Virus record (IMG/VR): IMGVR_UViG_3300037851_000476
Location: 1-64,000 of that record
Reading direction: 5' to 3' (one strand)
Length of the DNA: 64,000 nt
From: a virus
A model generated the notes under the pieces. The model saw only the letters and a list, made by a program, of their open reading frames with translations. It was not told the DNA's origin and did no database searches. Of this stretch, positions 18,311 to 63,810 are shown one piece after another; the stretch's first letter is position 1; each line of letters begins with the position of its first letter. Position numbers and translations under genes: made by a program.

Positions 18311-18755
18311 GCAGTCCAAGATCGGCGAGGGAACGATCATCCACCAGCCCGAGCTTTGCAACATTTACTATTCCTCCATCGGCCGCGACTGCCGCATAGC
18401 GGCTTTCTGCGAGATAGGCTTCTGCCTGATCGGCGATCGGGTTTTTATCCAGAGCTTTGCCTTCATTCCCCCGAAAGTGGTCATCGACAATGATGTTTTC
18501 ATCGGCCCGCGAGTCACCTTCTGCAACGACAAGTACCCGCCGAGCAAAGGCTACTGGCAAGAGAACAAAGTAACTCATGTGCGTAGTAGGGCCTCGATCG
18601 GGGCAGGGGCCATCATACTGCCGGAGGTCACGATCGGAGAAGGCGCCAGGATCGCGGCCGGCGCGGTCATAACCAAGGACGTTCCCCCAGGAGTGCTTTC
18701 TTATGGAGCTTACGGCAAGGGTTCAAGCGGTTCTGAGACATGGCCAGTTCGTTAA
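18300..18755 (+). CDS. wbpD: left-handed beta-helix (hexapeptide) N-acetyltransferase, WbpD-like
   Basis: Hexapeptide repeats. VFIGPRVTFCNDKYPPS and ASIGAGAIILPEVTIGEGARIAAGAVITKDVPP are present. Confidence 0.7.
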   Translation: MPVEQSKIGEGTIIHQPELCNIYYSSIGRDCRIAAFCEIGFCLIGDRVFIQSFAFIPPKVVIDNDVFIGPRVTFCNDKYPPSKGYWQENKVTHVRSRASIGAGAIILPEVTIGEGARIAAGAVITKDVPPGVLSYGAYGKGSSGSETWPVR

Positions 18756-19767
18756 CGGCCCCGAGGTCGGCGAGTTCGAGCGGGCCATGGCCCGCTACAT
18801 CGGCGTTGGAAATGCGGTTGCGCTCAACTCCGGAACCGATGCGCTCATATTGGCGCTGCGTGTTTTGGGGGTGGGCGAGGGGGATGTCGTTGCGCTTCCG
18901 GCCTTCACCTTTTCGGCGACCGCCTCCGCGGCGGCCATGTGCGGGGCGATTATCCACCTTGCCGATATCCGCGAGTCCGACTTCGGGATCGACGTAAACA
19001 CGCTATCCGATCCGGACGTTTTGAAAGCCATGATTGCAGTCGATATGTTCGGGATCCCCTGCGATTGGCCGTCGGTCATCGATATTTGCGCAACGCACAG
19101 GATCCATCTGGTCGAGGACGCCGCCCAGGCGATCGGCGCCCGATTCGCGGGGGCGAAGTGCGGCAGCATCGGGATGATCGGCTGCGCCTCGTTTTACCCC
19201 AGCAAGCCGCTGCCTTGCGCGGGCGATGGCGGCATGCTGTTCACCAACTACGACAGCATCGCCCAGCGGGCGCGCATGCTCGCAAACCACGGCCGCGTGT
19301 CCGAGCGCCGGTACGAGGCCGAGCGCGTCGGCACAAACAGCCGGCTCGACACCATCCAGGCCGCCGTCCTGCTCGACCGGCTAAAGGTCTTTGAAAGCCG
19401 CGAGATCCCCTGGCGCATTGCCCAGGCCCAGGAATACGGCAACCGGCTGCCCGCCTGCAGGCACCACGAGCCCAGGCCCGGGCGCGAGCCGGTCTGGTCG
19501 TGGTATCCGGTGCTGTACGAATCAAGGAAAGAGCGCGACGATGTTTTGCAGAACTACGGCGGCTACGTCGGGGCGCGGGTGATCTACCCGACCCCGATCC
19601 ATCTGATGCCGGCCTTTGAATACCTCGGCTACCGACGGGGGGATTTTCCGGTCGCCGAGTCGGTCTGCGAGCGGATCTTAGCCTTTCCGATTGTCCACCA
19701 TTGGGAGGTCAACCGATGCCTGTCTACGATCGGCAATGCCGAGAGTGCGGCCGTGTGTTTGAGGTGA
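18703..19767 (+). CDS. wbpE: DegT/DnrJ/EryC1-type PLP aminotransferase, WbpE-like
   Basis: VLRHGQFVNGPEV, NSGTDALILAL, VEDAAQA and SFYPSKPLPCAGDGGMLF (PLP-Lys region) are present. An in-frame stop at 18670-18672 limits the N-terminus. Confidence 0.8.
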   Translation: MELTARVQAVLRHGQFVNGPEVGEFERAMARYIGVGNAVALNSGTDALILALRVLGVGEGDVVALPAFTFSATASAAAMCGAIIHLADIRESDFGIDVNTLSDPDVLKAMIAVDMFGIPCDWPSVIDICATHRIHLVEDAAQAIGARFAGAKCGSIGMIGCASFYPSKPLPCAGDGGMLFTNYDSIAQRARMLANHGRVSERRYEAERVGTNSRLDTIQAAVLLDRLKVFESREIPWRIAQAQEYGNRLPACRHHEPRPGREPVWSWYPVLYESRKERDDVLQNYGGYVGARVIYPTPIHLMPAFEYLGYRRGDFPVAESVCERILAFPIVHHWEVNRCLSTIGNAESAAVCLR

Positions 19768-20756: not shown

Positions 20757-20769
20757 AAGGAGAGGATCA

Positions 20770-20963: not shown

Positions 20964-21191
20964 ATGGAACCAAACGAAAAAGAGCTGATCGAGGAGATGT
21001 CAACGAGGTTCACCTACCACCCCCCGAAGCAAGGGCAGCCGATAAAGTACGAGGATCTGCGCGAAGCCGGGAGGATGCTGGCATTAAAAATCTGCAACCT
21101 TTGTCCTGAAAGCAGGGAGCGTTCCGTTGCGCTTACCAAGCTGGATGAGGTTGTAATGTGGGCGAACGCCGCGATTGCCAGGAGGGAGTGA
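20964..21191 (+). CDS. small phage protein resembling the Acb2/Tad1-hairpin family (possible cyclic-nucleotide sponge)
   Basis: FTYHPP...YEDLREAGRMLALKICNLCPESRERSVALTKLDEVVMWANAAIARRE matches a very common phage small-protein motif. I recall that motif being annotated as Acb2/Tad1. Not verified. Confidence 0.5.
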   Translation: MEPNEKELIEEMSTRFTYHPPKQGQPIKYEDLREAGRMLALKICNLCPESRERSVALTKLDEVVMWANAAIARRE

Positions 21192-21418
21192 TGGACAAAT
21201 ACCGAAAGGCGGTTGTCGAGCTGTGCGCGGCGATCGAGCTTGCCAACGCCCGCGCAAATACCGGCCAGAAGGTGATGATCGACCTAAACGATTGGAGAGC
21301 GGCCTTGAAGCTGGTCGGGGAGATCAAGGCCAGCATGAACCACGGCGAGCAGTACCGCTACGAGCAGCACCTCGAACGCGAGCGCGGGTTCAGACAGGCA
21401 AAGGAGGCCCCCGCATGA
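21191..21418 (+). CDS. hypothetical protein (75 aa)
   Basis: TGATG junction with the previous ORF and an ATGA junction with the next. Confidence 0.5.
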   Translation: MDKYRKAVVELCAAIELANARANTGQKVMIDLNDWRAALKLVGEIKASMNHGEQYRYEQHLERERGFRQAKEAPA

Positions 21419-22599
21419 ACATCCTTTTCGTGGCCTATCACACCTGCGCCCGCGCCGCCAAGGAGGCCCGGGCGCTTGGAAAGGCGGGCCATCAGGTCAT
21501 CATCCTGCAGCATGTGGCCGCCAGCGAGGAGATCCTGTATTCAACCGAGCTTTCATCTTTCTACCACGGTGAGCAGGCCCTCCGCGAACGGATCGCCTAT
21601 TTTTCCGATTGGGCCGAGGTGATCCATGTCCACAACGAGCCCAACTGGATCGTCATCGCCGCCGCCGCCGAGCGCGACCGCTCATGCCCCGGCGTTCCGG
21701 TTGTCTTCGACGTTCACGACCTCGAATCCATGCGCGAATCGGGGGATACCGACAAGGACGAAACCGCGGCGATCCATGCGGCCGATGCCTTCATCTTCCC
21801 CAGCAGGGCCTATATGCACGGTGTCCGCACAAGCCGCAACGTAGATTCCGTGCCGTGCAGGGTCATCTATTCCATGTGTGGGCGAGATGAGATCGTTGAC
21901 CAGCCGCTTCCGAGGGTAAACGGCATCGTCTACGAGGGCGCGGCGGTCGCGCCGCTTCTGAACTTCAACAACAAGTCTCCCGGGTGGAAGGGCTATCGTG
22001 ACTACTCAAGCATGACGCGCGCCTTGACCGGCGCGTTCGTGCCGTTTCATCTGTACGGGATCCGCAAGGAGTTCCAGCAGCCCTACATCAACGCCGGGGC
22101 GATCGTCCACGACATGATCCGCTACCCCGACCTCTTGAAGCAGCTATCGCGCTACGATTGGGGGCTTTGCGGACACCTCGAAAGCCACCCCCAATGGAAC
22201 AAGGCCATGCCGAACAAGCTGTTCGAGTATCTGGCGGCCGGGATCCCGGTCATTTCGATCAACGCCGACGAGGTTTCCGATTTTGTTTCAAAGCACGGCC
22301 TGGGAGTGGTCGCCAAGGACTTGAACGAGCTGAACAAGATCGCCCGGGACCGTAAGATGCGCTCCTCCCTGGCCGAAAAGGTCGAGGACGAGCGCGAGCG
22401 GTTCACGATGGGGGGCCAAGTGAATGAGATCGAGGCGCTTTATGCACAAGCCTCCGCTTATCGCAAAATCCGACTTGATGCTGGGATGTGGATGCACGAC
22501 GGCGAGCAAAGGCCGGGAGCTGATCGAGCGTGGGTATGTAGCGCAAGGCCCGAAGACTTTGCCAAGGATAACGGCGGCGGCGATCAACTGCTCTCATAG
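21415..22599 (+). CDS. GT-B fold glycosyltransferase (GT4-like)
   Basis: AAGGAGG precedes the ATG at 21415. N-terminal MNILFVAYH. C-terminal NKLFEYLAAGIPVISINADEVSDFV is an E-x7-E type motif. Confidence 0.75.
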   Translation: MNILFVAYHTCARAAKEARALGKAGHQVIILQHVAASEEILYSTELSSFYHGEQALRERIAYFSDWAEVIHVHNEPNWIVIAAAAERDRSCPGVPVVFDVHDLESMRESGDTDKDETAAIHAADAFIFPSRAYMHGVRTSRNVDSVPCRVIYSMCGRDEIVDQPLPRVNGIVYEGAAVAPLLNFNNKSPGWKGYRDYSSMTRALTGAFVPFHLYGIRKEFQQPYINAGAIVHDMIRYPDLLKQLSRYDWGLCGHLESHPQWNKAMPNKLFEYLAAGIPVISINADEVSDFVSKHGLGVVAKDLNELNKIARDRKMRSSLAEKVEDERERFTMGGQVNEIEALYAQASAYRKIRLDAGMWMHDGEQRPGADRAWVCSARPEDFAKDNGGGDQLLS

Positions 22600-24024: not shown

Positions 24025-24281
24025 GCCAGCAGCAGCCCCCAGCCATTCCGATAAACGCAATCGACAAGCCCGTTTTCGTCATCAGGATCAACGTGATGGC
24101 GAGCGGAAAGCTCGAAGTCAACGGCTTCCCGGCCGAGTACAATCAGGCGATGAACGCTATGGGGCTCGCCCAGCGCGTAGTCATGGACTTCTTTATGTCC
24201 AAAGCCGTCAAGGGGGAGTTCAGAGAGCAGAAGCTATTTATGCCTAATCAGGAACAAATCTCCAAAATTACAAGGAATTGA
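24021..24281 (+). CDS. hypothetical protein (86 aa)
   Basis: AAAGGAG RBS. ATGA overlap with the methyltransferase stop. Confidence 0.5.
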   Translation: MSQQQPPAIPINAIDKPVFVIRINVMASGKLEVNGFPAEYNQAMNAMGLAQRVVMDFFMSKAVKGEFREQKLFMPNQEQISKITRN

Positions 24282-24288
24282 GGCCGCG

Positions 24289-25466: not shown

Positions 25467-25476
25467 GGGCGATGAA

Positions 25477-25665
25477 GTGCTAAACACTACCCATAGCGTA
25501 CCGTCCGAAGCTACTGCACAAAGGCTGCTTGACATAGTGCAAAAAATAGTGGAAGATTGTAGAAAAAGCCGGTACACCGGATGCATTTCACTCGTAGTCA
25601 CCTTTAAAGATGGTGGGCTTAGGTCATGTGAGCAGCACAATAGCCACTTAGTTTGTCTTGATTAG
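25477..25665 (+). CDS. possible small protein (62 aa, GTG start), YezD/DUF2292-like
   Basis: GCISLVVTFKDGGLRSCEQ resembles the DUF2292 core. Weak RBS. Low-GC stretch. Confidence 0.3.
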   Translation: MLNTTHSVPSEATAQRLLDIVQKIVEDCRKSRYTGCISLVVTFKDGGLRSCEQHNSHLVCLD

Positions 25666-50840: not shown

Positions 50841-51449
50841 ATGGCAATTTCGATCGATTGGGCGACCCAAATCATCACGGTGCCGCAGAGCTACCTGACG
50901 CATATTTCGGGTGCGCTCTACGAGCTGGACGTTGACCAGCTCCGGCTGGATCTGAAAGACATCGAGGACTCCGAGGAGGGCATGGCCTTCCCCGACACCC
51001 ACCGGCACAACACGGCCGTAACACTATCGGGAGTTACCTATGCGCGGACGGTGGAGATCATCAACGGCTACACCGTGACGTTTGAAAACGGCAATTACTC
51101 GGTGCGCTGCGTGGGGGCGAACCACAACATCGGCGATGTGAAAAACGTCAATTCGGTCAGCCTCATCATCGGCAACGCCGCGGGCCTGATTTCGGTGTCA
51201 TCCGGTTCGGGGCTCGACGCCTCGCAGGACGCCAAGCTGACGGCGATCAACGCGCAGCTCGCGGAGATAGAGGCCGGCTACGGCCATGCGCAGCTCATGC
51301 GCCTATTTGCTGCGGCGCTGGCCGGGATTGTCAGCGGCGCGGCCGGCACCAATGTCAAATTCCGCGACCTGGGCGACACCAAGGACCGGATCGACGCGAC
51401 GGTGGATCAATACGGCAACCGGTCGGCGGTCGTGTTGGATGCGGATTAA
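50841..51449 (+). CDS. virion-module protein (202 aa)
   Basis: ORF track. Confidence 0.6.
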   Translation: MAISIDWATQIITVPQSYLTHISGALYELDVDQLRLDLKDIEDSEEGMAFPDTHRHNTAVTLSGVTYARTVEIINGYTVTFENGNYSVRCVGANHNIGDVKNVNSVSLIIGNAAGLISVSSGSGLDASQDAKLTAINAQLAEIEAGYGHAQLMRLFAAALAGIVSGAAGTNVKFRDLGDTKDRIDATVDQYGNRSAVVLDAD

Positions 51450-51688
51450 TGTTTGCGCGGTCCTATTTCAGCGGAGCGTATTTTCCACCGGTTTACTTTC
51501 CTCCGGTGGTGGCGCTGGTTGTTGTCATCCCCACCCCTGCCCCTGTGAGTTACGGCGACTACCGGCAGTATGCGGGAAACGGCCCTGGCGGCGCTTTCGT
51601 GCCGATCAGGCGCCAAGCGTGGATTGACGCAAGCGATGATGAGATTGTCGAGCTTATCGCCATCTTCCTAATTTTGATGGGGTCGTGA
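51449..51688 (+). CDS. hypothetical protein (79 aa)
   Basis: ORF track. Overlapping junctions on both sides. Confidence 0.5.
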   Translation: MFARSYFSGAYFPPVYFPPVVALVVVIPTPAPVSYGDYRQYAGNGPGGAFVPIRRQAWIDASDDEIVELIAIFLILMGS

Positions 51689-54600
51689 CCATGAGCAGCC
51701 TTTCGGTGTGCCTGAAACGGATCGGTGTAGGAAAGCATGAGGATGCCATCTTGCGCGCCATGGCGGGCGATTACGTCCGCGACGGATACGCGGCGCATGA
51801 GGCGGCGGTCAGCGCGGTAAAGGACTACATCGCCGAGCTGGAAAAAGAGCGCGAGGAAATCCTTAATCAGGCGAAGGCTGCCGGCTGGGCCGAGCCGACG
51901 GCCGCAGCTCCGGAGGCAGCGCCCGAGGCGACCGCTATAACCATCGAGGAGGGCGGGCCAAAGCCGCCGAGAAAGCCCCGGCAGAAGCGCACCGCGGCCG
52001 AGATTGTCGAAAGCGCCGGGGCGCATGGGGTGAAGGGGATCGGGGAGGCGGTATCCGGCCTCTACGAGCTTTTCGGAGGCAAGAGCTTGAAGTCTTTCCC
52101 GGGCGGCATCGATGAGGACACCTACGCCAAGGCAAAGCCGCATTTCCAGAAAGCCCTTGAGGAGTTCCAGGCGGCCGGCCGCGACATCAAGGCCCTGGTG
52201 AAGTGGGCCTACGACAACTTCTCAACCAAGATCAAGCCCTACCTGCGCCGGTTCATCGCCGAGAAAAAGGCTGACGCGGTAACTGCGGCGGCCGAAGAAG
52301 GCGGCAGCGGCATCACCATCGAAACGCCGGAGGAGCAGGGCGGCAAAAAGAAGCGCGGCCCGAAGCTGCAGGATACCGGCGAGGCCTTGGGCGGCAAGCG
52401 GTCGAGCAAGGATCACCGCACCCGCACCGAGGCAATCGAGATCGAGCTTGGCGGTGCGTCGGAAAACGCCAGCGCCCAGCAGCTCGTCGCCTCCCTGGTG
52501 AAAAAGACCAACCGGAGCAACCTTTTCAAAATCGAGCATCCGGTGGAGGGGCGCACCTTCGGGGTCAAGCGCTTCCTGAATCAGGTCAGAAACCTCACCC
52601 ATACTTGGCACGATCGGACATCCTACGACTTTGGCCGTTACCGCAGGGAAAACGCCGTCAAGGCGCTCGAACGCTACGCCGAGGATCCCAAGCACTATAA
52701 AGACATGACCGCCAAGGCTGCCGAATATATCTCAGTATTCGAGCAGCTAAACGATGCGGTCAAGACCGCCTCCACCGTGGCCGAAGCAAGGCACGGCCTG
52801 CTCAAGGCCATCCTTGGCGAGGAGCTGGCCGAGAAGTTCACCGATGTCGATGCGATGAAAGAGCATTTCGGTGGAGCCAACCCCAGCCGGTTTTTTTCGA
52901 CCGAGCAGGAAAAATTCACCGACATGGGCAAGGCCTTAGTCAAGTGGGTCGAAAAGCCCTATGCGTTCGGCGACATGCTTTTTAACGGGTGGCTGCGCTT
53001 TGCCGCAAACGAAGGCGACCAGACCAAGAACCTGCCGATTGTGCGCGAGCGCAAGAACATTTTCGAGATCGAAACCCCCGAAACCTACCGCAACGGGCGC
53101 GATGTCACCCCCGAGGAGCTGATCGAGACTTTCAGCCTGCGGGGCATCGACTTCGGCGAATGGGTCGAGGCCGATTTCAGGCAGCGCAGCGTCAACCTCA
53201 CCTATGACTCCTTCAAGATGCTGGCCGAGGCGCTCGGCGCAAACGACAAGGGCATCAGCCTCTCGGATACTATGCGCCTGGGGATCGGCTGGGGCGCGCG
53301 CGGCCAGGGCGGCAAAACGGCCGCCGCCTTCTGGCCGGGAAACCGTGTCATCGGGCTCACCAAGACCAAGGGCGACGGCTCGCTTGCCCACGAGTGGGGG
53401 CATGCCTTCGATTTCATGGTGAACCGTGAAAACATGATCGCCCAGGTGGACGGCCGGGAGGTTCACGCAATAGATGACCTCAAGGACGCCCTCAAGAACT
53501 ATTACAAGGTCGAAGACCTCGAAAACCGGCTCATGGACCGGCTGCGCGGCATGTGGTCAAGCGCGCGCAACCGGACGAGCCGCCTGCAGGAGGCCAAGAA
53601 CTACCTCAAAAATGAGGCGATCAACGATGTGCGCGAGTACACCGAGTTTTTCAATGGCGCTCGAAAACTCGATGGCGGCCTCGTCGGCAAGTATTGGAGC
53701 AAGAAAGAGGAGATGTGGGCGCGGTCGTTTGAGGCCTACGTCGCCGACAAGCTGCAGGGATCGAACCTCTACCTTGTCGATGAGGCGTTCGTCGCCCCGG
53801 GCGGCGTCGAGCAGATGTTCAACCGCAAGGATCCGGCCTACCCGACGGCCGCCGAGCGGGAACGGTTCAAGCAGCTATTTGATGACTTTTTCAGCCAAAT
53901 CGAATGGTCCGAGGACGGGGTTCCCAAGCTCAAGCCCGATTATGTGCCTGTCACGACCCTTGAAAAGCAGCGGGCCGAGAAATACATCAACGACCTCGCC
54001 GAGCGGGTCGATTCGATCTATGAGGCCCTTTACGGCGGCGAGCAGTCAGAGGACGGCCTTTATTGGTACGCCTACGAGCAGACTTCCCGCGGGGTCGCCG
54101 CCCAGCCCAAGGGCTACATCGCCTACGATGACAGCTATAAGATCGAAACGGAATCAGCATTTGCCGGCACCGGGGCGGTCGCCTACTCGGAACCGCTTAA
54201 AGCCGATGATGTCCTCGGGTATTTCCTGAGATCCGTGAAACATGATAGAAACGCAACGACCATAGAGTTGGAGGTTCCAGATGGCACAATTACAGACATG
54301 GGGCCACGCGGCATTGAAGCATTGGAAGAAGCACCGCCCGAAGATGTGCGCCCACCTGCAGGAGCAGGGGTTACTGGAACAGGCGGCGTTGCAGGCGCAG
54401 GAGAGGGCGGTGGAGGCGGTGCTGGATCTGATGGGGTCGGGGGCGAACGTGGAGGAGGCGAAGGAATTGGTATTGACGAAGTTGATCTATCTCCCGTCGG
54501 AGGAGGAGGAGCCGACACTTCCACCGGACTTGATGCCGTTCAGTCAGCCCCCAAGTTAGACTACACCATCCGGCCGAGCAGCAACCTTGAAACGACCAAC

Positions 54601-57600
54601 GTAGCCGAGCGTTTCAACAACAATATCGCGGCCATCCGGACCTTGAAACAAATCGAGGCCGAGGGCCGCATGGCTACCGCGCAAGAACAGGATATCCTCG
54701 TCAGATACAGCGGGTGGGGCGAGCTTGCCAACTCGCTTGACTCGGATCCTCCGAGGGCATGGCAGGGCAGAGCCGAGATCGTCCATGCGCTGCTGACGGA
54801 CGAAGAAATCCAGGCCGCCCGCCGCAGCTCGCTCGACGCCTACTACACGCCGCCCTCCATCGGACACTCCATCTATGAGGGCCTGCAGCGTTTGGGCTTT
54901 TCGGGCGGCAAGGTCATCGAGCCCTCATCGGGAATCGGGCATTTCTTCGGCACCATGCCCGAGGACATGCGCCGCAATTCGGTCCTGACCGCCGTTGAAA
55001 TGGACAGCCTCACGGCCAGGATCGCCCGCCAGCTTTACCAGACCGCCAATGTTCTGAACCAGCCGTTCGAAAAGACATCGGTTCCGGACAATTTCTACGA
55101 CCTCTCCATTTCAAACGTGCCTTTCGGCGACCAGCAGATCCACGACCGCAAGCACAACCCCGAAGGCTTCCGAATCCACGATTATTTCATTAACAAGATG
55201 GTGAACATCACCAAGCCCGGGGGGCTCGTCGTGGCGATCTCCTCGACCGGCACGATGGATAAGGAAAACTCCCGGGCGCGCAAGGTGTTCTCGGAGAAAG
55301 CCGAGCTGATCGGGGCGATCCGGCTGCCGAACGGCATTTTCCCGGGGGCGGCTGCCGGCGCTGACATCATCTTCTTGCGTAAAAAGGGTGAGGGGCTGGT
55401 GCAGTTGCCGAAGGTGGCCGATTGGGTCAAGGCCGACGAGATTACCCTGCCCGCCGTTTTCGACAACGGCACCTCGCGCGGGTACACAAGCACGGTGCCG
55501 GTCAACCACTATTTCGCCGAGAACAAAGACAACATCATCGGGCCGCTTGCGGCCGGAGTCAACCGCTACGGTCAGCCGCAGGTTTACATCCAGAAGCAAA
55601 CCGACACCGACCAGAAGATCGCAGCGGCGATCGACCGGCTTCCGGCCTCGGTTTACACGACGGCGCAGGCGCCGATCGACATAGACCCCGCCAGCATGAT
55701 CCCCGAGGCCGGTTTCGTCAAGGACTTCGCCTACTACGTCGGCGAGGACGGCAAAATCTACCAGAACCAGGGCGGCAACCCGAAGCTGCAGGAGGACTTG
55801 AGCGAGGATCAGATCAATCGAGTGGCCGCCATGATCGGCATGCGCGACACGATCCGGAGCCTTTTGAGGTCGCAGGCGCTCGACAATCCGGAGAATGTCA
55901 TCAAAAGGCTCCGTAAACGCCTCAACGCCGAGTACGATGCGTTTGTCGATAAATACGGCCCGCTCAACCTGCGCAAGAATGCGCGGCTCATACTCCAAAA
56001 CCCCGATGCCGGCCTGCTGTTTGGGCTGGAACATTGGGACAAAACGCAGCAGAAGGTAAAGCAAAAAGCCGCGATTTTTTTCAGGAACACGGTTCAGCGG
56101 GCAAGGCCGCCCAAGTCGGCAGAAACCTCGCACGAGGGACTGCTCCATTCGCTCATGTGGCGCGGGCGCGTAGACCTGAACTATATCGGCCAACTCACCG
56201 GCAAGACAAGGGACACGGTTTTAAGCGAGCTGAAAGGCCGGATATTCGATGACCCTGAAAAAGGGTTCGTAACGAGCGACGAGTACCTTAGCGGCAACGT
56301 CAAGCAGAAGCTCGCGGCGGCGAAGTCTGCGGCCGAGATGGACCCGAAATACAAGGAGAACGTCGAGGCCCTTGAAATTGTCCAGCCGCTAATGATCCCG
56401 GCCCACGAGATCGGCGTCAAGCTCGGGGCCTCGTGGATCCCGGCCGATGTGGTGCGCGTGTTCGTGAACGATCTGTTCGGCGGCCACCTGGGCGGGTTTC
56501 ATATCGACCACGTTATCGAAACCGGCCTGTGGCACCCGCATTTCAGGGGGCGCACACAAGCGCAGGCAAAACGCTACGAGCAGACCGCAAAAAGCCACAC
56601 CGTTGCAACCGACGAGTTCGGCACCCGGGAGGTCAACCTCTTTGGCGGCACCGAGTACCACCGCAAGGGGATCCTCGACTACGCCCTGAACGGTGGTTTT
56701 CCGGAGGTCTACATCGAGGTCGTGGATGATTTTGGCGGGACGCGGAGAGTAAAAAGCGCGCGGCTGACCGACGCTGCGAACGCCAAACTATCGGCCCTGC
56801 ATGCTAGATTCAGCAGTTGGGTGGCTGAAAACGAGAGCATCCAGAAGAAAATCGAAGAAGTCTACAACGACCGGTTTAACGCCCTTGTCGAGCGCAAGTT
56901 CGACGGCGGCCACCTGACTTTCCCGGGCAAGGTTCCCGATGAAGTCCTCGCCTTGCGGCCTCACCAGAAAAACGCCGTTTGGCGGGCGCTGCAGACCGGC
57001 AAGACCTACTTCGCCCATGAAGTCGGCACCGGCAAGACCTTCTCCATGATCGGATCGATCATGGAATCTCGCCGGCTCGGGCTCGCCAAGAAGCCCATGA
57101 TGATCGTCAAGAAGGCGACCATCGAGCAGATAGCCGGGGAGTTCCTGCGGCTTTACCCGGGCGCCAACATCCTGGTGCTTAAAATCCCCGAGAACATGGA
57201 AAAGCGCAAGCGGGTTATGAGCAGGGTCGCAACCGGGGATTATGATGCCGTCATCATCAACCACGATTCTTTCAAGCGCATTCCGATCCTGCCGGAAACC
57301 GAGGGCGAGATCATCAACCACGAGCTGCAGCGCTTTGCGCGGGCGCTCGAAGAAGCCCAGGCCGCCAACGCGGCAAGGCACACTATCAGGGACATCGAGC
57401 GCCGTGTCGAGCAGCTAAGGCAGAAACTTGCGGCGCTTGCGGATCAAGAGCGCGATCCGGTCCCGACGATAGAGGAAATGGGCATCGACATGGTGGTGGT
57501 CGATGAAGCCCATATCCATAAGAACATCGGCTTTCCAACCAAGTTCGCCAACCTGAAAGGGGTGGAGCCGAAAGAGTCCGATATCGCCTTTGACCTGTTT

Positions 57601-60600
57601 ATGAAGACTCAATACCTGCACAAACGGTATGGGCGCGGCATCATCATGGCGAGCGGAACCCCGCTCACCAACTCGGTCGGAGAGCTTTACAACATATCCC
57701 GGTATCTGCATCCGGATGACCTCGACCGGCTGGGGATCTCCACCTTCGACGCCTGGGCGCAGACGTTCGGCGAAATGAAAAAAGAGGCCGAGTACGCTCC
57801 GGAGGGCGGCGGGTTCAAGCTGACGAGCCGCTTTGCCCGTTTTGTGAACGTGCCGGAGCTGATGGCGCTCACGCGGCAGAATATGGACATCAAGACCGCT
57901 GACGAGCTTTCCATCCCGCGGCCGGCCATCAAAAACGGCAAGCCCGAGCCGGTCATGGTGGAGCAAAACGAGTACGTCAGACAGTTCCAGCAGATCCTTA
58001 AATCCCGAGTAATCGAGGTCCGCATGCGCGGCCCGCGCGCCGAATATCGCGGCTACAACGACAACATGCTGCGGATCGTGACCGACGGGCGGCTGGTTGC
58101 GATGGACCCGCGCCTCTACGATACGGAGCTTCCGGACTACCCCGAAACCAAGACGAACGAAGCGGTGGGGCGAATCCATGAGCTTTACCGGCAGCAGGTC
58201 GATGCGGTTGAGAATGACCCCGAATCCAAAAATTACGGGAAGCCCTACAAGGAAAAGCGCCATCTGCAGTTGATCTTCGCCGATCGCGGAGTGCCAGGAG
58301 GCGAGGAAAAGTTCAACCTCTACAAGGACATCAAGGATAAGCTGGTGGCTAAGGGCGTCCCGGCCGGCGAGATCGCATTCATCCATGACGCCAAGAACGA
58401 TAGCCAGAAGCTCGAATTGTTCCGCAAGGCAAATGCCGGCGAGATCCGCATTCTCATCGGCTCGACCGGAATGATGGGCATTGGGGTGAACGTGCAGCAG
58501 CGGGTTTCCAACATGCACCACCTCGATGTCGATTGGACCTACGCCAACTACGAGCAGAGAAACGGCCGCGGCTGGCGGTTCGGCAACCGCGTCAAGGAAG
58601 TCGGCATCTACAACTACGGCACCAAGCAAACGGTAGACGCCTTCATGTGGTCTACGGTTGCCTTCAAGGAGCGGGTGCTGAAACAGGTGATGAGCAACGA
58701 TCCGAAGATCCGGCACGTTGAGGACATTTCCAAGACCTCGATCGAGGCCTCCGAAATGGAGGGGCTGCTCGCCGACGATCCCCTGCACAAGGAAAAGATC
58801 GAACTTGAGGATGAGGTTCGCCGGCTGTCGAACATCCGATCAGAGTACGAGGCCTCCCGCCGCAGGGCGCGCGAGCGGCTGGCCCGGGTGCCGCTTGAAA
58901 TCCAGGCCCAGGAAAAGGCCGTTGAGAACAACCATATCCATCTACAGATTGCCGAGTCGATCAACGCCCTGCAGGTGGGGGATCAGGCTTTCAACCTTGA
59001 GACAGAGGGCGCCAAGGCAAACGAGGCCGCAAAATCCATTGTATTGCCGGTTGCCGGGAACCGGCCCGTAGGGCAATTCGGCCATCTTGTCACAGTCGAA
59101 ACGACGGTGAAGGAGAAAGACAAAAAGGGAGAGGAAGTCGAGAAAAAGGTCAAAAGCAAACGCTTCCTGCCGATCGCCGCATGGCTCATGGGGCCGCACC
59201 CAGGAGTCGGCCTATACAAGATCGGGCAGGATGTGCGTTACGAATACCCGACCATCCTCGCAAACGGGGTCAGCCGCGGGCTCACCAATGTCAAAAACGG
59301 CTTGGAGGCAAACCGCAAGGAGGCGTTTGATAAAGCCAACAGCCTGAGAAAAGAGATCCCGCGCCTTGAGAAGCTGCTCGCAACCCCATGGGACCAAGAA
59401 AACGAGCTGGCGCAAAAGGATCAGCGCCTACGCCAGATCACCGAGGAGCTGCTGCGCCGCCAGGACGAGGAAGACGCCCGCATGCGCCGCGAGATCCAAG
59501 AGCGCGAGGCGGCCGGCGCCGAGGAAACCGATGCAGACGATACCGATGAAGTCAGGCTTGCCGTCGGCGACATCGCTTTAGGCAAGGTGGCCGAGCGCGG
59601 CCTCGGCATGCAGCGCGGCAGCGTCGAGCGGATCCGCGAGCTGGTGCCGGTGGTCGAGCGGGCCATGCGTCGGGCGGGGCTGCCCCAGGAGGCTATCGAT
59701 CTGGTCCGGATCGAGCTTAAACCGATCATCGATCTCAGCGGGAGAAATGTCGATCAGACCCTCGCCGATTGGGCGGCAGAGGGCAAGACGATGAGCCAGA
59801 TCCTCGGGGCGACCACCATGCGCAAATGGACGGCCCTGGTGGAACTAAGCCTTGAGCAGGATTTGCGCAGTCTTGAGAGAACGGCTTACCACGAATCTTT
59901 CCATATTGCGGCCAAGTGGTTGCTGCCTGAAACCGATTACGACCGGATCATGCAGCACTACCAGAGTGAGGAGGGCGCGGCCGAGGCGTTCGCTGATTTT
60001 GTGTCTCGGCGCTCGGGGGGGCAGCCAGCACCAATCGGCGCCTTGCGCCGCGCCTTCCTTAAACTGCGCGAGCTGCTGCGCCAGGTGGGGGATTTTCTGC
60101 GCGGCAGGGGGTGGACGAACCCCGAGGAGATCTTCGGGCGGCTTACTGCCGGCAAGTACCCTACGCATTTCGAGGCCTGGGGGCAGGGGGAAACGACCAC
60201 CGCCCTACGGAAATCCGCACCCCAGGCAAGCATCATCGAGCAAGTCACTCCGGCCCATGTCCACGAGCGGGTCAAGAAGGCCTTCGGCGGTATCGACCGC
60301 GGGCCGGCGCTGCAAAAGATCAAGGAAGGGCTCAAGGAAATCGTCAAAACCTTTACGCCCGGGCGCGAATACCTCGCCATGAACCCTAAACACTTTGGCA
60401 AGGCCTACGAGATCCTGCGAAACTTCAAGGCGACCAAGCAGTATGCCGACAGAAAGGCACTCGACAGCCTGCGCGAGATTCTTGACCCCAAGAACATGAG
60501 CAAGCAGGACTACGAGCTTTTCACGCTCAAGATCGCCTTAGAGGATCTGGCGCGCGAGCTGGGGGAGAACGGCAAATACGCGAATTGGGAGGCGATGGTC

Positions 60601-63321
60601 GAAAAATACGGGGCGCTGCAGTTCGGGTTCCAATCGGCTGACGAGGTGATGGAGTCGCTTGGCAAGGTCGATGCCCTGGTTAAGGAAAACGCCAAGGTGA
60701 AGGGCGCCCTCGCGCGGCGCGAGGAAATTACCGGATCCCTGTTGAAACGAGTCGTAGAGGCGAAGCTGCTGCCCGAGTCCGTCCTCAAGGATAAGCGCTA
60801 CTTCCACCACCAAGTCCTCGAATACCTGAACGACAAATTCGGGGCCGGCACCGGGGCCGGGGCCTTGCGTGTCGGCAAGCGCGGCTATCAGTTCGGCCGG
60901 ATCGAGAACGTGAAGGACTACAGCCTTGCCTATATCGAGTCCGAGTACGAGGTCATTGCGCACCAGATCAGCCAGATCGAGAAGCAGAAAAACCTCGATG
61001 AGATGAAGGCGGCCTATGACATCGCCAAGCGGCTGCGCGACAAGGCCAAGCAGATGAACTATGTGGCCGTTGTCGGCGGCCAGGAGAACATGAACCGGAT
61101 CAACCACCTGCGCGGGCTGATCGCTGAGATGAAGGGCTCCGGCGAAAAACTCGATTCGGGCGAAAAGGCGCAGCTCAAGGAGTGGGCCGAGGAAATCAGG
61201 GAACTCGACCCGACCATGCCGTACCGGCAGAGAATCGCCATCGGCTACGCCAAACTGAGTAAGGCGCTCGGCCTGAACGTCGATGAGGCCGACGTTGACG
61301 ATTACGCGATCGACATGGGCGAGATCGCCAAGTATGCGGAGTCCTCCGACGAGGCGCTGGCCATCCCGGCCAGGATGATTTTCAAGGCCATGGGCGAGCG
61401 CAACGCCTTTATTCAGGAAACCCTCGGCGGCAAGTTTGTCACCGAAACCGACCTCGCCCGCGATGAGAAGCCGATCGAGGGCTCGCAGGGCTGGACCGAA
61501 TGGGTGCCAAACCCCAGGAGCGCTTTCTACCTGACAGGCTCGATTCAGGATGCCACCGCCCAGCAGATCATCGCCGGAAGCCGCGAGCTGCAGGAAAGCG
61601 ACATCCATCCGGTCCTGGCCCGGGGGCGCGATGAAACCTGGATCATACCCCAGGAACTCGCCGCGGCGCTCGAATCCCGGCAGTTTTTCAACATGCCGCA
61701 TGAAACCATTGTCTCCCGGGTATCCGAAAAGACTCTCAACGCCTGGAAGCGGTGGGTACTGATTAACCCTATGCGGATCGTGAAGTACAACCTCAACAAC
61801 ACCTCCGGCGACTTCGACATCGCCTTCGCCTACGACCCGAAGATCCTGAAATACGCGAAGCAGGCGGCGGCCGACCTGTGGCGCTGGCACTACGGCAAGG
61901 AAATGACCCCGGCGCTCAAGTCCGAGCTGGACACCGCTCTGAGAGATGAGGTGATCGGCTCCGGCATGACGGTTCACGACATCCCCGATGTGCGCAACCA
62001 GGAGGGCCTGCAGCAGTTGGTGGATGCCATGGGGGCGGGACACCATTCGGCGTTGCGCACTATCGAAAAGTTCTGGCAGGGCTCGAAGAACTTCACGACT
62101 TGGCGCGAAAACGTCCTGCGGCTGGCGGCCTACCGCTACTTTAAGGCCAAAATCGGCGCCGGCAAGCGGGTCTACGGGGCGAGCCTCCCGGCCAAGGTCG
62201 ATGCCACGACCGACCCCGACCGTAAAGCCGCGCTTTTGTCCCGAGAGCTGGTGGGCGATTACGGGGCGCTTTCGCAGGGCGGGCAATGGCTGCGCCGTAA
62301 GCTGATACCCTTTTACAGTTGGTTGGAGATCAACGCTCCGCGTTACTACCGGCTGTATTCCAACTTGGCCGTCGAGGGGGAGTCCCGGGGGCGCGAGCTT
62401 CGAATGGGGGCCGTAGCCGCGAAGAAGGGGCTCCTCCTCTCGGCCAAGGTGTTCGCCGTGTACGCTGCGGCGCAGATGTTCAACCACCTGTTCTGGCCGG
62501 ATGAGGAGGAGGAGCTGGGGGAAACCGGCCGCCGACAGGCGCATTTGATCCTGGGCCGGCGCGAGGATGGATCGATCATCACCCTGCGCCTGCAGGGGGC
62601 GCTATCGGATGCCTTGAGCTGGTTAAACCTGCACGACTTCCCCGAGGACATGCGCGAGATCGCTACCGGCAAAAAGACCGTTTATCAATGGATGGCCGAG
62701 GCCGCCGTCGAGCCGGTCAACAAGATGGTGCAGGGGGTGCGACCGGAGATCAAGGCCCCCACCGAGCTTATCACCGGAAGGACCATCTACCCTGAATTTT
62801 GGAAGCCGCGCCCGATCCGCGACCGTGCGGAGTATGTGGCGCAGATGCTTTCAGCCGATTCCCTGTATCGTCGGGCCGCGGGGAAACCCCTACGGGGAGA
62901 CTCCGTTGAGCAGCGGGTGCTTTCAGACCTACTTTCGATTTTCACCTACTCGGCAGACCCAGGAGAAACCTCTTACTACAAGGCGCGAGATCTGGTGAAC
63001 GAGTATCTGAGGGGCCACAACCTCGAACGTCCCTTAGCGGACCCGACGAGCAGGGTAAACTCCCTTTTCTATTACAAACAGGCGATCAAGTACGGTGATG
63101 CCAAGGCCGCCGAAAAGTACCTGCAGCAATATAAGGATCTTGGCGGCGACATGAAAGGCATCCAGATGAGCGTGAAGCGAGCCCACCCGCTTGGGAACCT
63201 GCCGGCCGCCCATCGCAGCCGTTTTTTTAACTCCCTTGACGCCCAGGACCGCGAAACAGTAAAGCGGGCAACCGCGTGGTATCGAGACACCTATAAACAG
63301 GGAGGGAGGGAAGCGGCATGA
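51685..63321 (+). CDS. giant polyvalent protein (3,878 aa): HExxH module, N6-adenine DNA methyltransferase, SNF2/DEAD-type helicase, second HExxH module, long C-terminal region. DarB-like.
   Basis: HEWGH at 53389-53403. MTase motif I VIEPSSGIGHFFG (54913-) and motif IV SNVPFG (55111-55128). Helicase GTGKT (57025-57039), DEAH (57502-57513), ASGTPLTNS and QRNGRGWRFGN. HESFH at 59890-59904. The frame is uninterrupted. Confidence 0.85.
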   Translation: MTMSSLSVCLKRIGVGKHEDAILRAMAGDYVRDGYAAHEAAVSAVKDYIAELEKEREEILNQAKAAGWAEPTAAAPEAAPEATAITIEEGGPKPPRKPRQKRTAAEIVESAGAHGVKGIGEAVSGLYELFGGKSLKSFPGGIDEDTYAKAKPHFQKALEEFQAAGRDIKALVKWAYDNFSTKIKPYLRRFIAEKKADAVTAAAEEGGSGITIETPEEQGGKKKRGPKLQDTGEALGGKRSSKDHRTRTEAIEIELGGASENASAQQLVASLVKKTNRSNLFKIEHPVEGRTFGVKRFLNQVRNLTHTWHDRTSYDFGRYRRENAVKALERYAEDPKHYKDMTAKAAEYISVFEQLNDAVKTASTVAEARHGLLKAILGEELAEKFTDVDAMKEHFGGANPSRFFSTEQEKFTDMGKALVKWVEKPYAFGDMLFNGWLRFAANEGDQTKNLPIVRERKNIFEIETPETYRNGRDVTPEELIETFSLRGIDFGEWVEADFRQRSVNLTYDSFKMLAEALGANDKGISLSDTMRLGIGWGARGQGGKTAAAFWPGNRVIGLTKTKGDGSLAHEWGHAFDFMVNRENMIAQVDGREVHAIDDLKDALKNYYKVEDLENRLMDRLRGMWSSARNRTSRLQEAKNYLKNEAINDVREYTEFFNGARKLDGGLVGKYWSKKEEMWARSFEAYVADKLQGSNLYLVDEAFVAPGGVEQMFNRKDPAYPTAAERERFKQLFDDFFSQIEWSEDGVPKLKPDYVPVTTLEKQRAEKYINDLAERVDSIYEALYGGEQSEDGLYWYAYEQTSRGVAAQPKGYIAYDDSYKIETESAFAGTGAVAYSEPLKADDVLGYFLRSVKHDRNATTIELEVPDGTITDMGPRGIEALEEAPPEDVRPPAGAGVTGTGGVAGAGEGGGGGAGSDGVGGERGGGEGIGIDEVDLSPVGGGGADTSTGLDAVQSAPKLDYTIRPSSNLETTNVAERFNNNIAAIRTLKQIEAEGRMATAQEQDILVRYSGWGELANSLDSDPPRAWQGRAEIVHALLTDEEIQAARRSSLDAYYTPPSIGHSIYEGLQRLGFSGGKVIEPSSGIGHFFGTMPEDMRRNSVLTAVEMDSLTARIARQLYQTANVLNQPFEKTSVPDNFYDLSISNVPFGDQQIHDRKHNPEGFRIHDYFINKMVNITKPGGLVVAISSTGTMDKENSRARKVFSEKAELIGAIRLPNGIFPGAAAGADIIFLRKKGEGLVQLPKVADWVKADEITLPAVFDNGTSRGYTSTVPVNHYFAENKDNIIGPLAAGVNRYGQPQVYIQKQTDTDQKIAAAIDRLPASVYTTAQAPIDIDPASMIPEAGFVKDFAYYVGEDGKIYQNQGGNPKLQEDLSEDQINRVAAMIGMRDTIRSLLRSQALDNPENVIKRLRKRLNAEYDAFVDKYGPLNLRKNARLILQNPDAGLLFGLEHWDKTQQKVKQKAAIFFRNTVQRARPPKSAETSHEGLLHSLMWRGRVDLNYIGQLTGKTRDTVLSELKGRIFDDPEKGFVTSDEYLSGNVKQKLAAAKSAAEMDPKYKENVEALEIVQPLMIPAHEIGVKLGASWIPADVVRVFVNDLFGGHLGGFHIDHVIETGLWHPHFRGRTQAQAKRYEQTAKSHTVATDEFGTREVNLFGGTEYHRKGILDYALNGGFPEVYIEVVDDFGGTRRVKSARLTDAANAKLSALHARFSSWVAENESIQKKIEEVYNDRFNALVERKFDGGHLTFPGKVPDEVLALRPHQKNAVWRALQTGKTYFAHEVGTGKTFSMIGSIMESRRLGLAKKPMMIVKKATIEQIAGEFLRLYPGANILVLKIPENMEKRKRVMSRVATGDYDAVIINHDSFKRIPILPETEGEIINHELQRFARALEEAQAANAARHTIRDIERRVEQLRQKLAALADQERDPVPTIEEMGIDMVVVDEAHIHKNIGFPTKFANLKGVEPKESDIAFDLFMKTQYLHKRYGRGIIMASGTPLTNSVGELYNISRYLHPDDLDRLGISTFDAWAQTFGEMKKEAEYAPEGGGFKLTSRFARFVNVPELMALTRQNMDIKTADELSIPRPAIKNGKPEPVMVEQNEYVRQFQQILKSRVIEVRMRGPRAEYRGYNDNMLRIVTDGRLVAMDPRLYDTELPDYPETKTNEAVGRIHELYRQQVDAVENDPESKNYGKPYKEKRHLQLIFADRGVPGGEEKFNLYKDIKDKLVAKGVPAGEIAFIHDAKNDSQKLELFRKANAGEIRILIGSTGMMGIGVNVQQRVSNMHHLDVDWTYANYEQRNGRGWRFGNRVKEVGIYNYGTKQTVDAFMWSTVAFKERVLKQVMSNDPKIRHVEDISKTSIEASEMEGLLADDPLHKEKIELEDEVRRLSNIRSEYEASRRRARERLARVPLEIQAQEKAVENNHIHLQIAESINALQVGDQAFNLETEGAKANEAAKSIVLPVAGNRPVGQFGHLVTVETTVKEKDKKGEEVEKKVKSKRFLPIAAWLMGPHPGVGLYKIGQDVRYEYPTILANGVSRGLTNVKNGLEANRKEAFDKANSLRKEIPRLEKLLATPWDQENELAQKDQRLRQITEELLRRQDEEDARMRREIQEREAAGAEETDADDTDEVRLAVGDIALGKVAERGLGMQRGSVERIRELVPVVERAMRRAGLPQEAIDLVRIELKPIIDLSGRNVDQTLADWAAEGKTMSQILGATTMRKWTALVELSLEQDLRSLERTAYHESFHIAAKWLLPETDYDRIMQHYQSEEGAAEAFADFVSRRSGGQPAPIGALRRAFLKLRELLRQVGDFLRGRGWTNPEEIFGRLTAGKYPTHFEAWGQGETTTALRKSAPQASIIEQVTPAHVHERVKKAFGGIDRGPALQKIKEGLKEIVKTFTPGREYLAMNPKHFGKAYEILRNFKATKQYADRKALDSLREILDPKNMSKQDYELFTLKIALEDLARELGENGKYANWEAMVEKYGALQFGFQSADEVMESLGKVDALVKENAKVKGALARREEITGSLLKRVVEAKLLPESVLKDKRYFHHQVLEYLNDKFGAGTGAGALRVGKRGYQFGRIENVKDYSLAYIESEYEVIAHQISQIEKQKNLDEMKAAYDIAKRLRDKAKQMNYVAVVGGQENMNRINHLRGLIAEMKGSGEKLDSGEKAQLKEWAEEIRELDPTMPYRQRIAIGYAKLSKALGLNVDEADVDDYAIDMGEIAKYAESSDEALAIPARMIFKAMGERNAFIQETLGGKFVTETDLARDEKPIEGSQGWTEWVPNPRSAFYLTGSIQDATAQQIIAGSRELQESDIHPVLARGRDETWIIPQELAAALESRQFFNMPHETIVSRVSEKTLNAWKRWVLINPMRIVKYNLNNTSGDFDIAFAYDPKILKYAKQAAADLWRWHYGKEMTPALKSELDTALRDEVIGSGMTVHDIPDVRNQEGLQQLVDAMGAGHHSALRTIEKFWQGSKNFTTWRENVLRLAAYRYFKAKIGAGKRVYGASLPAKVDATTDPDRKAALLSRELVGDYGALSQGGQWLRRKLIPFYSWLEINAPRYYRLYSNLAVEGESRGRELRMGAVAAKKGLLLSAKVFAVYAAAQMFNHLFWPDEEEELGETGRRQAHLILGRREDGSIITLRLQGALSDALSWLNLHDFPEDMREIATGKKTVYQWMAEAAVEPVNKMVQGVRPEIKAPTELITGRTIYPEFWKPRPIRDRAEYVAQMLSADSLYRRAAGKPLRGDSVEQRVLSDLLSIFTYSADPGETSYYKARDLVNEYLRGHNLERPLADPTSRVNSLFYYKQAIKYGDAKAAEKYLQQYKDLGGDMKGIQMSVKRAHPLGNLPAAHRSRFFNSLDAQDRETVKRATAWYRDTYKQGGREAA
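54281..54559 (+). CDS. 92-aa helical protein encoded in the +1 frame inside the giant ORF (nested gene)
   Basis: GGAGG at 54270-54274 lies 6 nt before the ATG. The frame is bounded by TAG at 54263-54265 and TAG at 54557-54559. Third-position G/C is about 74/92 in this frame versus about 35/92 in the giant-ORF frame (hand count). Confidence 0.65.
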   Translation: MAQLQTWGHAALKHWKKHRPKMCAHLQEQGLLEQAALQAQERAVEAVLDLMGSGANVEEAKELVLTKLIYLPSEEEEPTLPPDLMPFSQPPS

Positions 63322-63752
63322 CGGTCGAAACTTTGCTCGGCAGCGGCGGCGTGGCCTTGCTTGGGGTTGTGGGATACTTTCTCAAGAAAACGCACGACAA
63401 AATAGATGCAACCGCCGCTGCCGTGGAAAGAATAGGCTCCGACGTTGATACGCGCATTGACAGGCTGGAAGATAAGCTCTCCGTTGAAACGAAGTCGGCT
63501 AGAACCGAAATTATTCATGTCTTTCAAGAGGTTTGCCACGAGCGGCAGGAGTCATGCGCGCGCCTGCGCGATGCGAAGCTCGCAACGACCGAGAACAGGG
63601 TGGAAGCGCAATGCAAAAAGATGCAGGCCATAATCGCCGATCGTGATCGCAAGTGGGAAAAGCAGGAAGCTCTAAACGAAAAATTCAAATCGCATATCTA
63701 CAAAACCAAGGATGGCGGGTCTTCCTGGGACTTGCAAAACGGCGACAAGTAG
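63318..63752 (+). CDS. N-terminally anchored coiled-coil membrane protein (i-spanin-like or other lysis/structural role)
   Basis: TM helix LLGSGGVALLGVVGYFL followed by a charged coiled coil. ATGA overlap with the giant ORF stop. Confidence 0.55.
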   Translation: MTVETLLGSGGVALLGVVGYFLKKTHDKIDATAAAVERIGSDVDTRIDRLEDKLSVETKSARTEIIHVFQEVCHERQESCARLRDAKLATTENRVEAQCKKMQAIIADRDRKWEKQEALNEKFKSHIYKTKDGGSSWDLQNGDK

Positions 63753-63810
63753 CCCCGCGAAATTGAAATGAAAGAACCCCCTTCTTTCGAAACAAGGGGC
63801 CTATTACACA

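Follow-up and report, generated by a model that had tools for sequence, protein, structure and literature searches.

A giant DarB-like polyvalent protein of a podovirus-like phage ends in a large, unannotated C-terminal module family

The P1 protein DarB (2,255 amino acids (aa); defence against restriction B), an anti-restriction factor defined by genetics in which a methyltransferase is followed by an SF2 helicase, acts from the virion (P1 record annotation; PMC9144972). A SWI2/SNF2-methylase-LPD36 module is also part of the repertoire of the polyvalent-protein class, in which zincin peptidases are the commonest hub and for which autoproteolytic processing has been proposed (Iyer et al. 2017, PMC5512222). 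Here we analyse a related giant protein, encoded by a 3,878-aa open reading frame (ORF) at positions 51685-63321 on the plus strand of a 64,000-nucleotide stretch of viral DNA (positions 1 to 64,000 of the IMG/VR record IMGVR_UViG_3300037851_000476; hereafter the window). Because DarB is an anti-restriction factor carried in the virion, a related role is plausible for this protein.

Proteins of this kind have been described in podoviruses of ~60 kb, whose ‘DarB-like’ proteins (phrog_10089) include Bcep22 gp75, JC1 gp69 (4,515 aa), SopranoGao gp06 (4,369 aa, ‘PLxRFG protein’), Gervaise gp28, Pavtok gp27 (5,007 aa), Atu_ph08 gp21, VvAW1 gp01 and a protein of Mwe-JY07. JC1 gp69 was detected by mass spectrometry in virions purified on caesium chloride (CsCl), where it was the second-highest-scoring protein, with 51 unique peptides (PMC9144972). 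The giant protein of Shiga toxin (Stx) phages (phi24B gp47; AU6Stx1 gp77, 2,807 aa) has the domain order LPD5-LPD1-MuF_C-LPD38; phi24B gp47 was found in virions by proteomics, and a role as an ejection protein that forms a transperiplasmic conduit has been suggested for it. The virion RNA polymerase (vRNAP, ~3,500 aa) of N4, a giant podovirus enzyme that is encapsidated and ejected, has a zincin-like domain in its C-terminal region that is needed for encapsidation (Iyer et al. 2017, PMC5512222). It offers a functional analogue of the arrangement proposed below, cargo joined to a packaging module; its cargo is an RNA polymerase, and it has neither sequence similarity to the protein studied here nor a structural match to it among PDB chains at E <= 0.001.

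The ORF of the window is complete, and its frame is unbroken across all 3,878 codons. The giant multi-module ORF reported in an initial annotation, which had been made from the nucleotide sequence without database searches, is thus confirmed, and all the motifs quoted there were found at their places in the protein. The GC content at third codon positions (GC3) was 0.72-0.84 in 12 of the 12 computed 300-codon blocks (aa 1-3600), a uniformity that marks the frame as coding in every block checked. Long antisense ORFs within the gene (e.g. 60538-62544, 668 aa) were rejected as artefacts, since the high GC3 accounts for them as by-products. The modules follow one another in the order N-terminal region, zincin HExxH/LPD1 module, Gly-rich linker, methylase and SNF2 helicase, second HExxH module, and an all-alpha C-terminal module of ~1,040 residues (hereafter the C-module), with the following coordinates.

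51685..63321, plus strand: giant polyvalent protein ORF, complete, 3,878 aa; GTG start, alternative ATG at 51691
51685..53064, plus strand: N-terminal region, aa 1-460; no family match
53077..53904, plus strand: first zincin-like module, aa 465-740; HEWGH and LPD1 helix (EEMWARSFEAYV), from NCBIfam, Pfam and BLAST
54397..54564, plus strand: Gly/Ala-rich low-complexity stretch, aa ~905-960, from the sequence itself; 23 Gly in aa 901-1000
54523..59541, plus strand: DarB-like core, aa 947-2619; phrog_10089 match
54787..55389, plus strand: gamma-class N6-adenine methyltransferase, aa ~1035-1235; YYTPP, EPSSGIGHF (motif I), NVPF (motif IV)
56950..58692, plus strand: SNF2/SF2 helicase, aa ~1756-2336; GTGKT, DEAH, SGTP, QRNGRGxR; Pfam SNF2-rel_dom, ResIII and Helicase_C
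58693..59751, plus strand: charged region, aa ~2337-2689; 34-38% Asp, Glu, Lys and Arg, the first part lying inside the phrog_10089 and DarB alignments
59752..60198, plus strand: second HExxH module, aa ~2690-2838; HESFH at 2736, then EEGAAEAFADFV
60199..63318, plus strand: conserved C-module, aa 2839-3878, mostly alpha-helical; YFHHQVL, NNxSGDxD, RENxLRLAAYR, GDYGNxS, PFYSWxEIN, FPDEE, PRPIRD

The central part of the protein is the one that links it to DarB. Residues 947-2619 matched phrog_10089 (‘DarB-like antirestriction’) with E=0 and 1,409 bits, a match that takes in only positions 1559-3242 of the 4,647 of the profile. Within this core, the methyltransferase carries EPSSGIGHF at aa 1079 and SNVPFG at aa 1143 and scored 21.0 bits against the Pfam N6_Mtase cut-off of 20.4, and the helicase, with GTGKT at aa 1781, DEAH at 1940, SGTPLTNS at 1990 and QRNGRGWRFG at 2291, passed the cut-offs of SNF2-rel_dom (30.9 versus 24.9) and Helicase_C (37 versus 23.5). 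All the catalytic motifs of both enzymes, including helicase motifs I, II, III and VI, are intact. BLASTP against P1 DarB itself (NC_005856) aligned its residues 65-274 with the methylase at 34% identity (5e-26), with NVPFG in common, as well as the N-lobe (2e-16) and the C-lobe (1e-11) of the helicase, and the three alignments are colinear. The pairing of a methyltransferase with a helicase in the manner of P1 DarB, as proposed in the initial annotation, is therefore supported by direct comparison and by significant profile hidden Markov model (HMM) matches to both families in Pfam and PHROGs, and the same mapping recovered the zincin/LPD1 module. LPD36 gave no Pfam match; the phrog_10089 match begins at aa 947, ~90 residues ahead of the methylase, so that this stretch too is conserved. 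A reading of the core as part of a defence system was rejected: PADLOC returned only generic similarity to DrmD, DpdE and a methyltransferase, in the helicase C-terminal and methylase domains, which within a virion operon points to shared folds and not to a defence system.

The core has many relatives among known phages. A tblastn search with it found 131 phage records, 70 of which cover at least 80% of the core (up to 98%) at 31-38% identity; they include Lessievirus (Bcep22, JC1, DC1), Gervaisevirus, Lastavirus (SopranoGao, LASTA) and Pavtokvirus/PEp14, as well as Atu_ph08, POI1126, Itty13, VvAW1 and Mwe-JY07. For the podoviral DarB-like proteins introduced above, this identity extends over 84-98% of the length of the core. 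The known podoviral homologues are 3,640-5,007 aa long, a post-helicase HExxH (HELFH, HEAFH, HEMFH and the like) is present in 7 of the 8 examined, and they likewise continue for ~900-1,100 residues past this second HExxH. P1 DarB, on the other hand, has neither of the HExxH modules and is also without the N-terminal 950 residues and the C-module of 1,040 aa. The statement in the initial annotation that the protein goes well beyond DarB in size and in its flanking HExxH modules therefore holds against P1 DarB and fails against the podoviral relatives, in view of which neither the size nor the second HExxH is new. The podoviral proteins differ among themselves at their N-termini, and several carry a lytic transglycosylase there, whereas the Pfam scan found no SLT or lysozyme domain anywhere in the present protein. 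At the nucleotide level, megablast found no counterpart of the giant gene among 50,697 phage records, and an exact 40-mer was absent from both the genome-contig and the viral-contig collections searched; these collections thus do not contain the source phage.

The place of the gene in the genome is also that of its relatives. On the same strand, the window has tailed-phage genes at 12097 (large terminase), 15146 (P22-like portal), 25782 (scaffold), 26740 (major head protein) and 29484 (homologue of head-closure protein Hc3); it thus represents a podovirus-like phage, in which the giant gene is the last large gene of the co-directional virion block. In the podoviral relatives the giant gene similarly ends the virion block, usually right before the lysis cassette. 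One ORF here unites disparate domains, LPD1 among them, and lies among virion/late genes, as is characteristic of phage-type polyvalent proteins; by its sequence, the protein can be assigned to the known class of phage-type polyvalent DarB-like giant virion proteins. The initial annotation, which had placed a DarB-like polyvalent protein at the end of the virion module, agrees on this point with the homology to P1 DarB, the homology of the core and the genomic position shared with the relatives.

Its position at the end of the virion module suggests that the giant protein is probably packaged and ejected. Taking the comparisons together, we consider it likely that this is a giant polyvalent protein which is packaged by means of its C-module and ejected, and whose methylase-helicase dyad counters restriction. 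According to this scheme, the protein would be synthesised late and co-translated with its neighbours, and would enter the capsid through the C-module together with the adjoining HExxH region, a route that we propose by parallel with the zincin-containing region that N4 vRNAP needs for encapsidation. It would then be expelled through the tail along with the DNA, the C-module possibly also forming part of a trans-envelope ejection conduit. Inside the cell the dyad would shield the entering genome against restriction, just as type I systems are countered by P1 DarB, and the two putative HExxH peptidases flanking the dyad may cleave the polyprotein into functional units. Such a scheme introduces no new principle; it would expose a modular rule in which a constant C-module of ~1,000 residues is combined with swappable enzymatic cargo. 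In such phages, roughly one fifth of the genome is given over to giant polyvalent proteins.

The part of the giant protein that is new is the C-module, a large unannotated family without a solved structural relative. Beyond aa ~2620 the protein has no match in Pfam, PHROGs or NCBIfam, and the C-module gave no match in a sequence search of PDB chains and no tblastn match in the 50,697 GenBank phage records even at E up to 10, where chance hits alone appeared. An indexed word search found seven homologues, with one more found by profile, and the module might have been taken for very rare. This view was overturned by an exhaustive HMM search, which detected 2,609 representatives of clusters (formed at 50% identity) at E<=1e-3 and 1,915 at E<=1e-30; rarity judged from the word-indexed search alone would have been badly wrong. 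In the family alignments, YFHHQVL, NNxSGDxD, RENxxR, GDYG and SWxExN are the invariant motifs of a module of ~900-1,000 aa. Counted along the 1,040-aa module, its invariant residues include N534, D538, D540, R636, E637, R641, R682, D687, Y688, E710 and R715. The module lies nearly always at the end of proteins of 750-6,600 aa, with a few of the best 150 representatives having up to ~350 aa beyond it.

What precedes the C-module varies. In all seven close homologues the similarity reaches the extreme C-terminus and the N-terminal parts are unlike; one, from a Candidatus Magnetominusculus prophage, bears a PBECR3 nuclease and another a RadC domain. Pfam domains in 21 mid-sized members comprised ART-PolyVal in five, GGDEF in two and RadC in two, with a Sno-type helicase, SNF2, Peptidase_M23, SLT and LPD3 found once each. 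The methylase-helicase core accompanies the module in ~26 of the best 150 representatives, and four of these 150 (P0012, P0014, P0026 and P0036; 4,642-6,639 aa, each a single ORF) show the whole architecture, including the N-terminal similarity. Judged from these domains, the cargo of the C-module proteins is variable in a way typical of injected effectors.

A scan of species-representative genomes located 39 C-module loci, spread over varied and for the most part uncultured phyla; Desulfobacterota, Nitrospirota, Gemmatimonadota, Planctomycetota, Synergistota, Verrucomicrobiota (including a complete Nibricoccus genome) and Anaerolineales are represented. The absence of the module from cultured-phage records is probably explained by this mostly uncultured host range. 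In the 38 loci that could be placed, the module occupies the C-terminal part of a giant ORF, which reaches >4,360 aa where the contig permits, and a locus on a Syntrophus chromosome (L019, >4,293 aa) has the same module order as the present protein in one ORF. Homologues of the giant gene close phage structural blocks in four loci: in L001 an SU10-type adaptor gene lies upstream, in L004 ERF/SSB genes lie downstream, in L016 small genes and an SLT-like gene follow, and in L017 convergent replication genes follow. Six known endolysins used as probes for lysis genes after the giant-gene homologues in the loci from metagenome-assembled genomes gave no match, a result that is uninformative. A further locus, L013 (ENA ERZ25039461 contig_61203, 7663-21812), has the same module order split into many short frames and is probably the product of noisy long-read assembly; directly upstream in it stands a GGDEF+InPase gene, which may belong to the same giant ORF.

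To describe the fold of the C-module, we used an AlphaFold (AF2) model. Prediction from seven sequences was too poor for use (predicted local distance difference test score, pLDDT, 58), and an alignment of 54 sequences remedied this, giving a mean pLDDT of 82.9 and a predicted template modelling score (pTM) of 0.80. The model is nearly all alpha-helical, apart from a few small beta elements. Foldseek found no counterpart for it in the PDB chain library (best E 0.13, template modelling (TM) score about 0.1), whereas a search of BFVD returned 59 matches at E<=1e-3 with probability 1.0 and TM scores of 0.3-0.54. These were mostly long phage proteins represented by their second or a later chunk (‘_2’ to ‘_4’), the rest being whole proteins of ~900-1,400 aa, and many bear the name ‘large polyvalent protein associated domain’, some others being named for LPD38, ART-PolyVal, RelA/SpoT or LT_GEWL.

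The C-termini of the described giant proteins belong to other families, namely an LPD38 type in JC1 and Gervaise and an LPD39/PLxRFG type in SopranoGao, Pavtok, Atu_ph08 and Mwe-JY07. By Pfam, LPD38 lies close to the C-terminus in JC1 gp69 and in Stx-phage gp77/gp47, and LPD39 within the PLxRFG-type C-terminus of SopranoGao; the ~900-aa C-termini of JC1 and Gervaise are homologous to that of Stx gp77 (26% identity, about 1e-65). LPD38, LPD39 and PLxRFG gave no Pfam or NCBIfam match in the giant protein or in two close relatives, and an HMM built from 161 C-module stretches found nothing in eight known giant proteins. HHalign of the C-module with the LPD38/PLxRFG-type C-termini gave E 0.009-0.018 over 110-254 columns at probabilities under 5%, and recurrently chose one colinear stretch, RENxLRLAAYR...DYGNxS...hydrophobic...DEE. 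A weak HMM match to Stx gp77 falls at ENALRLSAYKHARD, opposite RENxLRLAAYR of the C-module, where the Stx-phage protein has an ENALRLSAY motif. The C-terminus of that protein is not detectably homologous by sequence to the C-module; the likeness lies at the level of this motif and of fold-level matches to other, unrelated LPD38-annotated proteins in BFVD. With chance hits in tblastn, nothing from the HMM and these HHalign probabilities, the idea that the C-module is a divergent LPD38/PLxRFG domain was left unproven. We take the relation to these types as an equivalence at the level of the fold, homology being unproven.

We tentatively propose, with confidence falling slightly short of even, that the last ~1,040 residues constitute a new unannotated family, widespread in prophages of the phyla named above, that serves as a universal chassis for loading swappable cargo into podovirus capsids and for ejection, or that represents a new enzymatic activity delivered at infection. 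As a chassis, the C-module would be a structural counterpart of the LPD38- and PLxRFG-type C-termini. Although no entry in Pfam, PHROGs or NCBIfam and no cultured-phage record covers it, the family is large and can be folded with confidence. It provides a handle for annotating thousands of metagenomic giant proteins, as well as one on the capsid targeting of cargo and on the engineering of phages that deliver chosen proteins.

In the first HExxH module, HEWGH lies at aa 569 and YWSKKEEMWARSFEAYV at aa 670; Pfam matched LPD1 within it at 5e-16, and the NCBIfam CLCA_X-like zincin matched aa 465-739 at 1.3e-31 with 109.9 bits, which, being below the curated cut-off of 260, indicates similarity and not family membership. 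The module, with HEWGH and EEMWARSFE, gave no MPTase-PolyVal match in the Pfam scan. Several PHROGs of giant phage proteins also match aa 465-740, and the module is 32-36% identical to Stx-phage and other phage giant proteins. With the Stx-phage giant protein, which lacks the methylase-helicase dyad, the zincin/LPD1 module is held in common at 35.6% identity over aa 473-732. The second module matches Mwe-JY07 aa 3724-3889 (BLASTP, E 0.004) and a stretch of L013 (tblastn, 4e-7); its HESFH aligned with HEVGH of the relative P0001, and HMM support was weak. By sequence alignment, it occupies the position of the post-helicase HExxH of the known relatives. A comparison of the two modules with each other showed no similarity, and they were therefore rejected as duplicates. 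Between the helicase and the second module, the initial annotation had seen a long charged coiled coil (aa ~2330-2690), of which the charge was observed (34-38% Asp, Glu, Lys and Arg) and the coiled coil is the reading of that annotation alone.

Preceding the first zincin-like module, aa 1-460 have no match in Pfam, PHROGs or NCBIfam. The only conserved part of this region is aa 115-191, which are 62% identical in one frameshifted metagenomic relative (L013), and N-terminal similarity at the level of BLAST was seen in 4 of the best 150 representatives and in 2 of 38 genome loci with a C-module match. We interpret the Gly/Ala-rich stretch as a linker that joins the N-terminal block to the DarB-like core. 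P1 is a myovirus in which the packaging of DarB needs DarA, Hdf and DdrA, for which no significant equivalent was found here. A sub-threshold Pfam DarA_C match lies at 54022-54260 (aa ~793-851), just after the first zincin (E 0.074; 14 bits versus a cut-off of 27); if real it would tie the giant protein to the P1 DarA packaging system, but it is not significant.

Several points weigh against a packaged, ejected anti-restriction protein. Packaging, ejection, cleavage and anti-restriction are all argued from homologues. The C-module lacks significant sequence similarity to the LPD38 or LPD39/PLxRFG C-termini of the proteins known from virions, its profile-profile scores are weak, and the Foldseek TM scores (0.3-0.54) are moderate. 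Its invariant polar residues (NNxSGDxD, RENxxR, RELxGDYG and SWxExN) might point to an enzymatic role and not to that of a chassis. The second HExxH (HESFH + EEGAAEAF) is taken for a peptidase from its motif and position. For the hydrophobic stretch at aa 3574-3600, with GLLLSAKVFAVYAAAQMF at aa 3582, a transmembrane reading was rejected as too weak: the stretch contains lysines and has a 19-residue Kyte-Doolittle mean of 1.28, and so the one example quoted for the hydrophobic stretches that the initial annotation had noticed near the C-terminus is not a clear transmembrane segment.

Among the other explanations, the one that survives best, although we consider it unlikely, is that the protein is primarily an ejection (‘pilot’) protein, its C-module and helical regions serving as a trans-envelope conduit and its SNF2 motor aiding genome translocation as N4 vRNAP or T7 RNA polymerase pull DNA, with anti-restriction secondary or absent. 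The role proposed for phi24B gp47 is of this kind, SLT and M23 peptidoglycan hydrolases, which are typical of ejection proteins, occur in the C-module family, and the all-alpha C-module (~1,040 aa) is big enough. Furthermore, podoviruses depend on internal proteins to bridge the envelope, and none of the other genes of the window could be recognised as encoding an ejection protein. The intact catalytic motifs of the methylase and the direct homology to DarB nonetheless speak for anti-restriction, and the search of the PDB chain library found no structure similar to the C-module (best E 0.13); ejection and anti-restriction are, moreover, not mutually exclusive.

Phage-encoded methyltransferases often work in the producing cell, and the operon position of the giant gene implies late expression; both facts would suit a protein that is never packaged and acts late in the infected cell, by methylating progeny DNA before packaging or by remodelling host DNA, its place among virion genes reflecting operon economy. 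We regard this as improbable, given that homologues are present in virions (JC1 gp69, with the same core and position, and phi24B gp47), that P1 DarB acts from the virion, and that variable cargo joined to a constant C-module mirrors packaged effectors such as MuF fusions, N4 vRNAP and DarB. Hardly any weight attaches to the idea that the long ORF is an assembly error joining separate genes, or else a pseudogene in decay, which the extreme length and the split frames of L013 might suggest, because codon-position GC is uniform in the 12 blocks (aa 1-3600), the catalytic motifs are all intact, P0012, P0014, P0026, P0036 and the Syntrophus locus keep the same module order in a single ORF, and L013 resembles a noisy assembly.

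The genes immediately adjoining the giant gene are both small.

51449..51688, plus strand: upstream ORF of 79 aa, hydrophobic; ATG overlapping the stop of the preceding 202-aa gene (TAATG), TGA overlapping the GTG of the giant ORF
63318..63752, plus strand: downstream 144-aa ORF; N-terminal hydrophobic anchor, remainder charged and helical; overlaps the stop of the giant ORF

The giant ORF may start at ATG 51691 and not at GTG 51685: a G-run at 51679-51682 lies 8 nucleotides (nt) upstream of the former and only 2 nt upstream of the latter. From the GTG, the gene overlaps (GTGA) the stop of the 79-aa ORF, and from the ATG it is separated from it by a 2-nt gap; the start of the 144-aa ORF overlaps the stop of the giant ORF (ATGA). 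Thus, the overlapping start and stop codons described in the initial annotation are present downstream, and upstream if the GTG is used, and the giant gene is tightly coupled to both neighbours under either start. The 79-aa protein is Pro/Tyr/Phe-rich and hydrophobic in its N-terminal half and has a hydrophobic C-terminal tail. Because the lysis cassette comes after the giant gene in relatives, the 144-aa protein is perhaps a lysis protein (holin or spanin-like), or else it may be a membrane protein. A GC-rich hairpin, CCCCTTCTTTCGAAACAAGGGG, follows it within 63753-63800, by eye without a T-run.

Further upstream, the 1,049-, 566-, 901- and 202-aa proteins have no match in Pfam, PHROGs or PDB, leaving the label ‘spike’ that the initial annotation had given to genes ahead of the giant gene unconfirmed. 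An 83-residue piece of the 901-aa protein (aa 23-105; 48131-48450) is 39% identical to large Rhizobium phages, the sole similarity of this protein to GenBank phages and a weak hint at a rhizobial or other alphaproteobacterial host. The GC content of the window is ~59-60%. A 649-aa protein (39759-41708) matches phrog_10969 at 1e-98 and is conserved in F116-like Pseudomonas podoviruses, where records call it ‘structural protein’ or, oddly, ‘LigA’; it is also kept in loci with relatives of the giant gene (L001-L003 and L013) and might be a conserved partner of the giant protein.

Between the portal and the scaffold/major-head genes, an unusual place, ~8 kb (17441-25500) are occupied by genes of sugar-metabolism type, among them the following two.

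18703..19767: DegT/DnrJ/EryC1 aminotransferase (3e-85)
21175..22599: GT4 glycosyltransferase

These genes might serve the glycosylation of the capsid or of DNA, or the modification of the host surface.

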